A stretch of 64,000 nt of DNA from NCBI RefSeq assembly GCF_058153355.1, contig NZ_CM177019.1; one strand, written 5' to 3'. The notes under the pieces are model-generated. The model did not search any database. It had not been told where the DNA came from and saw only the letters and a program-made list of their open reading frames with translations. Shown here in pieces: positions 36,220 to 53,435 of the stretch (positions are counted from its first letter, which is position 1; every line of letters begins with the position of its first letter). A program made the translations under genes and the position numbers.

Positions 36220-37191
36220 ATGGAAACGAAAAAAAATAATAGCGAATACATTCCTGAGTTTGATAAATCCTTTCGCCATCCTCGCTACTGGGGAGCATGG
36301 CTGGGCGTAGCAGCGATGGCGGGTATCGCTTTAACACCGCCAAAGTTCCGCGATCCCATTCTGGCACGGCTGGGACGTTTTGCCGGACGACTGGGAAAAA
36401 GCTCACGCCGTCGTGCGTTAATCAATCTGTCGCTCTGCTTTCCAGAACGTAGTGAAGCCGAGCGCGAAGCGATTGTTGATGAGATGTTTGCCACCGCGCC
36501 GCAAGCGATGGCAATGATGGCTGAGTTGGCAATACGCGGGCCGGAGAAAATTCAGCCGCGCGTTGACTGGCAAGGGCTGGAGATCATCGAAGAGATGCGG
36601 CGTAATAACGAGAAAGTGATTTTTCTGGTGCCGCACGGCTGGGCCGTCGATATCCCGGCCATGCTGATGGCCTCGCAAGGGCAGAAAATGGCAGCGATGT
36701 TCCATAATCAGGGCAACCCGGTTTTTGATTATGTCTGGAACACGGTGCGTCGTCGCTTTGGCGGTCGTCTGCATGCGAGAAATGATGGTATTAAACCATT
36801 CATCCAGTCGATACGTCAGGGCTACTGGGGATATTATTTACCCGATCAGGATCATGGCCCCGAGCACAGCGAATTTGTTGATTTCTTTGCCACCTATAAA
36901 GCGACGTTGCCCGCGATTGGTCGTTTGATGAAAGTGTGTCGTGCGCGCGTTGTACCGCTGTTTCCGATTTATGATGGCAAGACGCATCGTCTGACGATTC
37001 AGGTGCGCCCACCGATGGATGATCTGTTAGAGGCGGATGACCATACGATTGCGCGGCGGATGAATGAAGAAGTCGAGATTTTTGTTGGTCCGCGACCAGA
37101 ACAATACACCTGGATATTAAAATTGCTGAAAACTCGCAAACCGGGCGAAATCCAACCGTATAAGCGCAAGGATCTTTATCCCATCAAATAA
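36220..37191 (+). CDS. lpxM: lipid A myristoyltransferase
   Basis: 323-aa late acyltransferase-like product at the expected position. Confidence 0.9.
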
Positions 37192-52701: not shown

Positions 52702-53043
52702 ATGATGAAAAAAAGTATTCTGGCGTTTCTGTTACTCACCAGTTCTGCAGCGGCGCTGGCGGCACCGCAGGTGATTACCGTCAGTCGTTTTGAAGTGGGT
52801 AAAGACAAATGGGCATTTAACCGCGAAGAGGTGATGCTGACATGCCGACCGGGCCATGCGTTGTATGTTATTAATCCGAGTACCCTCGTGCAGTATCCTT
52901 TGAACGATATCGCACAAAAGGAAGTCGCCAGCGGGAAGACCAATGCCCAGCCCATTTCGGTGATTCAGATTGATGATCCTAACAATCCAGGTGAAAAAAT
53001 GAGTCTGGCACCGTTTATAGAGCGAGCTGAAAAACTCTGTTAA
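52702..53043 (+). CDS. yebY: DUF2511 protein YebY
   Basis: 113-aa secreted protein. Confidence 0.8.
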
Positions 53044-53071
53044 TTACCTAAAATAGCCTTTTGATTTCCAA

Positions 53072-53114
53072 TAAAAAACCGCCTCAGTTCTTTCACCAGA
53101 ACAGGCGGTTTTTA
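53072..53114. terminator. bidirectional terminator (yebY on plus strand, ryeA on minus strand)
   Basis: A-run, CCGCCT...AGGCGG hairpin, T-run. Confidence 0.55.
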
Positions 53115-53200
53115 ACATTCAAGCTGATGACCACCACGCTTTTTATTGACCATTTTGCACGCAAACTGGAAAACCTGGCGTCGTCATCTATTCTTAAAGG

Positions 53201-53303
53201 GCAAGGCAACTAAGCCCTGCATTAATGCCAACTTTTAGCGCACGGCTCTCTCCCAAGAGCCATTTCCCTGGACCGAATACAGGAATCGTATTCGGTCTTT
53301 TTT
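53201..53303 (+). ncRNA. sdsR: small RNA SdsR (RyeB)
   Basis: Sequence from GCAAGGCAACTAAGCC to the CCGAATAC...GTATTCGG hairpin and T-run matches my recollection of SdsR. Confidence 0.75.
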
Positions 53304-53435
53304 TAATTGCATTTGAAATCAATTGGTTGCAAATGTCTCCCCGAAATTCCCCGAAATTTACTCGAATTTCTGTATTCCGGTCTTTTTTGGTTATATCACA
53401 ACCAAAATACATTTAACAATCCATTTACGTTAAAA

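Follow-up and report, generated by a model that had tools for sequence, protein, structure and literature searches.

Positions 53279-53435 of the window, as the whole 64-kb stretch of DNA analyzed here is called, very probably represent the attL site of a lambda-like temperate prophage, whose integrase recombines in the 3′ end of the small-RNA gene sdsR. The initial annotation, which had placed a prophage at the sdsR/ryeA locus with the sdsR 3′ end as att core, is borne out by a boundary at 53305 and by an integrase gene of the lambda type. It had also described a second, imperfect copy of the sdsR end and a tandem repeat beyond the junction as att core and arm-type remnants. This reading has to be divided: the CCCCGAAATT repeats do behave like arm-type integrase sites, but they are not remnants and belong to the conserved P′ arm of attP. 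The suggestion of more than one integration event did not hold up, as the second copy and the repeats are found inside a single attP in excised phages and are conserved across integrase lineages. The “duplicate” at the junction is a matter of attachment-site architecture and not of repeated insertion, which is relevant wherever the integration history of a hot spot is reconstructed from repeats.

The last host protein gene ahead of the junction is yebY (52702..53043, plus strand, from the list of open reading frames), which is assigned to the YebY family in matching E. coli records. The sdsR (ryeB) gene lies on the plus strand at 53204-53304 and is matched over its full length by the Rfam model RF00111 (111.9 bits, model positions 1-100). 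Antisense to it, the conserved body of RyeA (SraC) occupies 53163-53308 on the minus strand and gives a full-length match to RF00101 (172.4 bits); both scores are far above the gathering scores. The intrinsic terminator hairpin of sdsR (53270..53298, plus strand), which is called by the terminator scan, is composed of GGACCGAATAC, the loop AGGAATC, and GTATTCGGTCT, and is followed by a T-run that extends to 53304. Its minimum free energy in the window is -15.8 kcal/mol; folding predicts a stability equal to that of the K-12 terminator, with a longer T-run. The gene differs from sdsR of K-12 at two bases, 53290 (A for G) and 53299 (T for C), both of which are of the phage type.

Similarity to K-12 ends at 53305, just past the 3′ end of sdsR at 53304. 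The empty K-12 site reads gaatACAGGAATCGTgTTCGGTCTcTTTTTatctgttaaaagcc... and continues to pphA, the attB within it being ACAGGAATCGTgTTCGGTCTcTTTTT followed by host DNA, and the window reads gaatACAGGAATCGTaTTCGGTCTtTTTTTaattgcattt at the junction. A 2-kb query across the junction found matches in 5425 complete E. coli genomes. The match ends at query base 706, which corresponds to window position 53305, in 5,198 of them, all without this integrase, and it continues through integrase and excisionase in the other 227. The junction between sdsR and pphA is uninterrupted in 5191 of the 5425 genomes. Approximately 4% of complete E. coli genomes are thus occupied at the sdsR site, nearly all by this type of integrase. 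In prophage-free strains, the sequence to the right of 53304 is missing altogether, the second copy included, and neither the second copy nor the tandem repeat was found in the 5.7-kb K-12 locus with the empty site.

The tyrosine integrase gene (53436..54512, minus strand) ends 131 bp beyond sdsR, in agreement with the approximately 130 bp given initially. Its product is of the lambda/HK022 type, with 39-42% amino-acid identity to the integrases of HK022, lambda, and 434, and with the Pfam domains Arm-DNA-bind_1 (PF09003, E 4.6e-6), Phage_int_M (PF22022), and Phage_integrase (PF00589). The start of the integrase gene is overlapped by an excisionase gene (54478..54774 as the maximal open reading frame, minus strand) with an annotated product of 93 amino acids, which is called excisionase in the E. 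coli lysogen FDAARGOS_943 and carries the PF07825 (Exc) domain on an identical locus. NCBIfam offered no useful family for either protein. An identical integrase is encoded on the NCBI draft contig AATFBS010000013.1.

Several further features of the window were noted alongside. Just upstream of the excisionase gene, a RalA antitoxin small RNA (54870-55048, plus strand, Rfam 203.9 bits) lies opposite a small DUF1187 open reading frame, an arrangement like that of the RalR/RalA toxin-antitoxin pair of the Rac prophage. Further into the prophage, a C4 antisense RNA and an isrK Hfq-binding RNA are adjacent to each other at 61244-61432 on the minus strand, where they overlap the 5′ end of an open reading frame for a Rha-family regulator (60635-61483, minus strand); the region forms an antirepressor control module of the P1/P7 or Gifsy-1 type. 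Positions 1-25000 of the window hold a separate lambdoid prophage that adjoins aspS and carries tail genes, a terminase gene, and an ipaHd effector gene. It is matched best by Shigella-like genomes under the name E. coli, and the window therefore probably stems from a strain of Shigella or enteroinvasive E. coli.

The att core, ACAGGAATCGTATTCGGTCTTTTTTT at 53279..53304 on the plus strand, is the 26 bp common to attB, attP, attL, and attR and corresponds to the loop and the 3′ half of the sdsR terminator. The terminator itself is an inverted repeat with a 7-nt spacer and hence takes the form of C-overlap-C′. Written in this way, the core can be read as GACCGAATAC, AGGAATC, and GTATTCGGTC, that is, as putative inverted sites around the 7-nt loop. 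The first copy of the 17-nt sdsR end, GTATTCGGTCTTTTTTT, lies exactly at 53288-53304.

As the window ends at 64000, approximately 10.7 kb into the prophage, the evidence for attR comes from another genome, a lysogen with 98.5% identity across the junction, and a third copy of the core was not found within the 64-kb window. This closest complete lysogen, FDAARGOS_943, is Shigella-like and carries ipaH3 and IS600. Its prophage is approximately 47.5 kb long, and the matching core expected at the other prophage end is present there: the far end reads ...tgttgacgaaaACAGGAATCGTgTTCGGTCTcTTTTTatctgttaaaagcc immediately ahead of pphA. With one copy of the core at each end, the prophage of FDAARGOS_943 is therefore flanked by a 26-bp direct repeat. 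The attR of the prophage in the window would accordingly be predicted to read ...TTGACGAAAACAGGAATCGTGTTCGGTCTCTTTTT, followed by pphA.

The two copies of the core are not identical and this difference locates the crossover. The left end carries the phage-type bases A and T, which are also found in the core of the attP of phage PP818812, and the attR of FDAARGOS_943 carries the host-type G and C. The crossover therefore lies to the left of 53290, within ACAGGAATCGT, an interval of 11 bp that contains the AGGAATC loop. The 7-nt loop of the terminator (53281-53287) is presumed to be the overlap region. In the attP core of the Flyfo siphovirus Tbat2_3, AGGATTG takes the place of the AGGAATC of E. 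coli, with an identical C′ half; this suggests that the sdsR terminator of the Flyfo host has a different loop from that of E. coli, and it fits an overlap region located in the loop. A core-like stretch was also noticed in the P arm of FDAARGOS_943 (locus L003, 47830-47851), approximately 186 bp to the left of the attR core, where ATACAGGAATTGCTTGCGTCTG resembles the core sequence ATACAGGAATCGTGTTCGGTCT and is identical to it in the first 10 nt. The homologous stretch of PP818812 is much less core-like, and the resemblance may be due to chance.

The origin of the DNA between the junction and the integrase gene is revealed by excised phage genomes. The GenBank phage PP818812, whose integrase is 98% identical to that of the window, has a contiguous attP that reads ...tgttgacgaaaACAGGAATCGTATTCGGTCTTTTTTTaattgtattt...CCCCGAAATTCCCCGAAATTtactcgaatttctGTATTCCGGTCTTTTTTggttatatcac... 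and runs into the integrase gene. The same layout is present in the circular genome OL617042 (Flyfo siphovirus Tbat2_3, integrase 50% identical) and in OK490361 (Salmonella phage ZC-S1_prp, integrase 72% identical). In all three, the segment that corresponds to 53305-53435 forms one continuous piece with the P arm; it is therefore carried by the phage, as the P′ arm of one attP. The excised attP joins the P arm seen at the far end of FDAARGOS_943 to the P′ arm seen in the window, with the second copy and the repeats included.

Two observations concern PP818812.1 (L004) itself. The record is labeled “Actinobacillus phage vB_Apl-pPE4” and attributed to Actinobacillus pleuropneumoniae, while its integrase gene and attP share approximately 97% identity with E. 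coli/Shigella prophages, and the core of this attP corresponds to the enterobacterial sdsR 3′ end; the assignment to an Actinobacillus host looks doubtful. Beyond its P arm, at a distance of approximately 290 bp from the core, lies a perfect, GC-rich hairpin (CTGCGGCACGT...ACGTGCCGCAG, L004 2703-2740). On the integrase strand it is located downstream of the integrase gene across attP, which is the position of the sib/tI retroregulation element in lambda.

The P′ arm can be divided into four parts, whose att positions are counted from 53284 as the presumed center of the overlap. The spacer (53305..53338) holds a match to the IHF consensus, AATCAATTGGTTG at 53317-53329 (+33 to +45), which agrees exactly with WATCAANNNNTTR. 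It is followed on the plus strand by three tandem arm-type repeats (53339..53369, approximately +55 to +85), P′1 and P′2 being CCCCGAAATT and P′3 the degenerate unit TACTCGAATTT at 53359-53369. The tandem repeat had been recognized correctly at the outset, with its coordinates displaced by 1 nt: the CCCCGAAATT pair occupies 53339-53358 and not 53338-53357. The second copy of the sdsR end comes next, at +88 to +104. The last part (53389..53435), conserved in lineages A-C, comprises the integrase-proximal end of the arm and the 3′ untranslated region of the integrase gene. An inverted repeat, TTTTGGTT/AACCAAAA, is found at 53385-53407, and TGATATAAC on the minus strand (53390-53398) resembles an extended -10 element. 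The 53389-53435 block is absent from the Flyfo phage and lineage E, in which the integrase gene stops right after the second copy.

The repeats show the behavior of arm-type sites. They are found in every relative in lineage-specific form. Two or three copies of the respective lineage's own repeat motif, all in the same orientation, are also located in the P arm of the attP and attR sequences, at approximately -160 to -120. The motif differs between lineages (CCCCGAAATT, CCTCGAAATT, TCCGAAATT, GTCCGAAAAT, or CACGAAATC) and that of the P arm changes along with it, so that the repeats on both arms, which are distinct from the core, change together. The tandem repeats are probably bound by the arm domain of the integrase. 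The consensus positions of the IHF-like site are kept in lineages A and B and partly degenerate in lineage C, the Flyfo phage, and lineage E, of which the latter two are the most distant. From the core outward, the P′ arm would thus be ordered as an IHF-type bend site, three arm-type sites for the N-terminal domain of the integrase, a C′-like element, and the 3′ end of the integrase gene.

The C′-like element is the second copy, GTATTCCGGTCTTTTTT at 53372..53388 on the plus strand, which is also present in the attP of excised phages. The initial observation that the 17-nt sdsR end at 53288-53304 recurs imperfectly at these positions was confirmed. Compared to the first copy, one C is inserted and one T is missing, which corresponds to an edit distance of 2 against the 17-mer. 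Elsewhere in the window the 17-mer has no match at ≤3 mismatches, except for one with 3 mismatches at 36233. Random 64-kb windows from a first-order Markov model (Markov-1) contain 0.005 matches per window at an edit distance of ≤1, a threshold slightly stricter than the real second copy. That the repeat is real is supported more strongly by independent phage lineages, in which it recurs at the same offset, than by such chance statistics.

This recurrence was followed in two scans of viral contigs, which yielded 73 loci with close relatives, further lineages (69-74% identity), and a third clade with 80 loci. The integrases of the third clade are approximately 78-80% identical to the Flyfo integrase, which itself has 50% identity to that of the window. 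The left flank, wherever it was read, is sdsR, apart from loci in which attP is contiguous and from a small number of contigs that are truncated or artefactual. The second copy is located 2-3 nt past the third repeat in each of the five integrase lineages, which extend to an identity of 50%. Between the five lineages, the core, which is held by the host gene, has an average identity of 0.97, the repeats of 0.72, and the 34-bp spacer of 0.42. The second copy matches C′ at 8-11 of 11 bases or with one inserted base. It is exactly GTATTCGGTCT in L065, L149/L150, and L027, and takes the forms ATATTCGGTCT in the Flyfo phage, ATATCCTGTCT in the third clade, and GTATTCCGGTCT in most other relatives. 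The T-run is missing from the second copy of the Flyfo phage and lineage E because the integrase stop codon follows directly.

In the close clade, represented by 40 distinct sequences, polymorphic columns make up 16 of 34 in the spacer, 4 of 31 in the repeats, and 6 of 19 in the block that holds the second copy (53370-53388), where the variation mostly amounts to one indel and the length of the T-run. Variable columns of the IHF-like site fall mainly on the NNNN and R positions of its consensus, and the whole integrase-proximal stretch is conserved, with the second copy included. The second copy is present in the attP of the excised phages and in every relative examined, with the exception of one deletion variant that is described below. 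Owing to its fixed offset and its conservation despite the divergence of the spacer, the second copy behaves like a selected arm element and not like drifting DNA.

What this element does can be approached through its likeness to the integrase sites around it. It is closer to C′ than the phage's own C site is, and in reversed orientation it also resembles the arm motif. The favored reading of its role, a serious possibility but short of a probable one, is that the second copy provides a further binding site for the integrase, either of the core type or as an inverted arm-type site. A strict core-type reading is weakened by the common form of the element, in which 1 nt is inserted into the middle of the C′-like sequence, and by one lineage that matches C′ at only 8 of 11 bases. 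A more specific and more tentative proposal is that the C′-like 11-12-mer may act in cis as a functional fifth integrase-binding site and as a conserved part of the intasome, or of its directionality control, across the sdsR-targeting lambda-like integrases. In this family, the motif of the arm-type sites (CCGAAAT) may also share an evolutionary origin with the half-site of the core (CCGAATA). Use of the second copy as a crossover site was rejected, since it is without the AGGAATC overlap segment.

The second copy might instead be an ancient fossil, left behind when an ancestral phage gained a duplicated att fragment, for example, through excision from a tandem or composite site, and now passive and without function. 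Its sequence is clearly related to the 3′ half of the sdsR terminator, T-run included in lineages A-C, and indels and substitutions in the middle of the element are tolerated, as GTATTCCGGTCT, GTATCCGGTCT, and GTATTGCGGTCT all occur. A passive relic is nevertheless rather unlikely: the offset has been kept even where the integrases share only 50% identity, the 34-bp spacer next to the element is down to 42% identity at this divergence, and in the close clade the element is approximately as invariant as the arm repeats. Moreover, recombination between the two copies can delete the arm, as seen in one draft genome; under neutrality, retention of an element with such a cost would not be favored.

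This draft lysogen, IMG/VR contig IMGVR_UViG_2728369554_000022 (L021/L096), carries a precise deletion from the core to the second copy, …ACAGGAATCGTATTCGGTC|TTTTTTGGTTATATCAC…, by which the IHF-like site and all three arm repeats are removed. By analogy with lambda, the deletion should lock the prophage in place. A deletion of this type was sought in complete E. coli genomes and not found among the matches listed, all of which have the two-piece arrangement of 170 bp. A total of 220 E. coli genomes match both halves of the query and the spacing of the copies is normal in every match listed; the L021 variant is therefore rare or an assembly artefact. A second unusual contig, IMGVR_UViG_2574180332_000004 (L156/L097), carries two related integrase genes. 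It was considered as a tandem lysogen and set aside, as the junction next to the second gene shows an N and a duplicated block with its start exactly at GGTCTTTTTGG, which looks like a scaffolding artefact at a repeated arm.

Transcription offers two other explanations for the region. The integrase-proximal block, second copy included, could form a phage promoter on the minus strand (TGATATAAC at 53390-53398, with a start near 53383) for a RyeA-like antisense RNA across attL that would replace the native one. The TGnTATAAC-like motif is conserved in lineages A-C, and PhiW104 lysogens show an altered ryeA 5′ portion with reduced expression (PMC7380047), which implies that some transcription enters from the phage DNA. 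The same antisense transcripts could equally be supplied by read-through from the integrase gene, and lineages D and E have no room for the motif yet keep the second copy, so a promoter is an improbable account of the block and could apply only to lineages A-C. A sigma-70 promoter scan of 52950-53600 returned no minus-strand call in the arm; TGATATAAC is not called because the last base of its hexamer is a C.

On the plus strand, the third repeat and the second copy could pair into a hairpin followed by a T-run and serve as a back-up terminator against read-through from sdsR or against late transcription antisense into the integrase gene. Read-through from sdsR is substantial in K-12 (PMC6610125), and in some relatives CCGAAT-N6-ATTCGG followed by TCTTTTTT forms a tidy hairpin with a T-run, which reaches -7.4 kcal/mol in the best case (L149). 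In the window, however, the minimum-energy fold has only -2.6 kcal/mol and a different pairing, and the hairpin is weak or absent in most lineages. The terminator scan calls only the sdsR terminator, the putative stem shows no compensatory variation, and the Flyfo phage and lineage E keep the element without a T-run, with the integrase stop codon directly after it. A back-up terminator is thus highly unlikely, and as the main explanation of the second copy it was discarded after the folding of 13 variants, in which the hairpin was weak and inconsistent.

Scars of one or more earlier integrations, with the true junction of the current prophage at the second copy, are hardly credible even at a documented insertion hot spot and with 16 nt shared by the two copies in direct orientation, since the whole of 53305-53435 sits between P arm plus core and the integrase gene in excised or circular phages, both copies keep their normal spacing in the matches listed among the 220 E. 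coli lysogens, the second copy lacks the ACAGGAATC segment to which the crossover maps, and the repeats between the copies match the P arm repeats on the far side of the phage.

With 53279-53435 read as attL, the consequences for the host locus can be outlined. The phage carries its own copy of the 26-bp core, and integration thereby rebuilds a complete sdsR, whose new 3′ end is supplied by phage DNA. The gene is complete after integration because the phage brings its own copy of the last 26 bp, and bases 53290 and 53299 of the rebuilt gene are phage-derived. RyeA is affected differently: judged from the literature and from the anatomy of the site, its native promoter and 5′ end, including the first ~38 nt, are displaced to the far end of the prophage, and pphA likewise. 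In K-12, the -10 element of ryeA is located approximately 46-51 nt past the end of sdsR, according to the primer sequences in PMC6610125 and the K-12 sequence; this -10 sequence was not found in the window to the right of 53304. In K-12, most transcription of pphA originates at the sdsR promoter and reaches the gene by read-through (PMC6610125). With the ryeA promoter and 5′ end and pphA at the far end of the prophage, both are uncoupled from sdsR. In lysogens, sdsR is preserved and its terminator slightly improved, RyeA loses its own promoter, and pphA loses the promoter from which it is reached by read-through. Carriage of the prophage should therefore shift SdsR/RyeA/PphA regulation. A regulatory change at ryeA/ryeB has already been reported in Salmonella.

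Elements inserted in the ryeA/ryeB locus of Salmonella enterica were reportedly described by Balbontin, Figueroa-Bossi, Casadesus, and Bossi in 2008 (J Bacteriol 190:4075). The initial description of the locus as a reported insertion hot spot is matched by this Salmonella precedent (PMC7380047), and ryeB is listed as a known phage target in a survey of integration sites (PMC3603311). A literature search on prophage attB sites and integrases at sdsR found nothing specific to E. coli or Shigella. Integration into the 3′ end of ryeB/sdsR is hence already published for Salmonella and no new principle is involved; the modestly new detail is the conserved C′-like element outside P′3. The analysis also provides a fairly complete sequence-level map of attP and attL for a widespread integrase family, which is found in hundreds of viral contigs and in approximately 4% of complete E. 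coli genomes and all examined members of which target the sdsR terminator.

The nearest published system is PhiW104 of Salmonella. Its att site consists of the final 23 bp of ryeB, and its lysogeny alters the 5′ portion of ryeA, lowers ryeA, and raises ryeB (PMC7380047, citing Balbontin 2008). The phage in the window likewise targets the last ~23 bp of ryeB/sdsR, which lie within ryeA, and in both cases sdsR is rebuilt and the 5′ portion of ryeA is replaced by phage DNA. The Salmonella relative OK490361, with an integrase of 72% identity, shares core and arm layout with the phage in the window. In contrast to PhiW104, the prophage resides in an E. coli/Shigella-like host and has an integrase of a different sub-lineage.

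In lambda attP, H′ and P′1-P′3 are located at very similar positions, and the lambda integrase gene stops right after P′3. Lambda attP is not known to have an equivalent of the C′-like element outside P′3, because its integrase gene stops there. The system described here shares with lambda and HK022 an integrase of 39-42% identity with the same three domains and an adjoining xis gene. It also shares the three ~10-bp tandem repeats on the integrase-proximal arm at approximately +55 to +85, the repeats on the other arm at approximately -160 to -120, and a putative IHF site between the core and P′1. It differs from both in its core and arm sequences and in the position of the core on an RNA terminator hairpin, the 7-nt loop of which would serve as overlap.

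Phages that integrate into the 3′ ends of tRNA, tmRNA, and other small-RNA genes and provide a new 3′ end in exchange are said to have been described by Williams in 2002. As in that class of sites (survey PMC3603311), the core of the present system overlaps a conserved 3′ hairpin and the phage copy restores the gene. It differs in its target, a bidirectional pair of small RNAs, in which sdsR is restored, yet RyeA is truncated and the read-through gene pphA is cut off.
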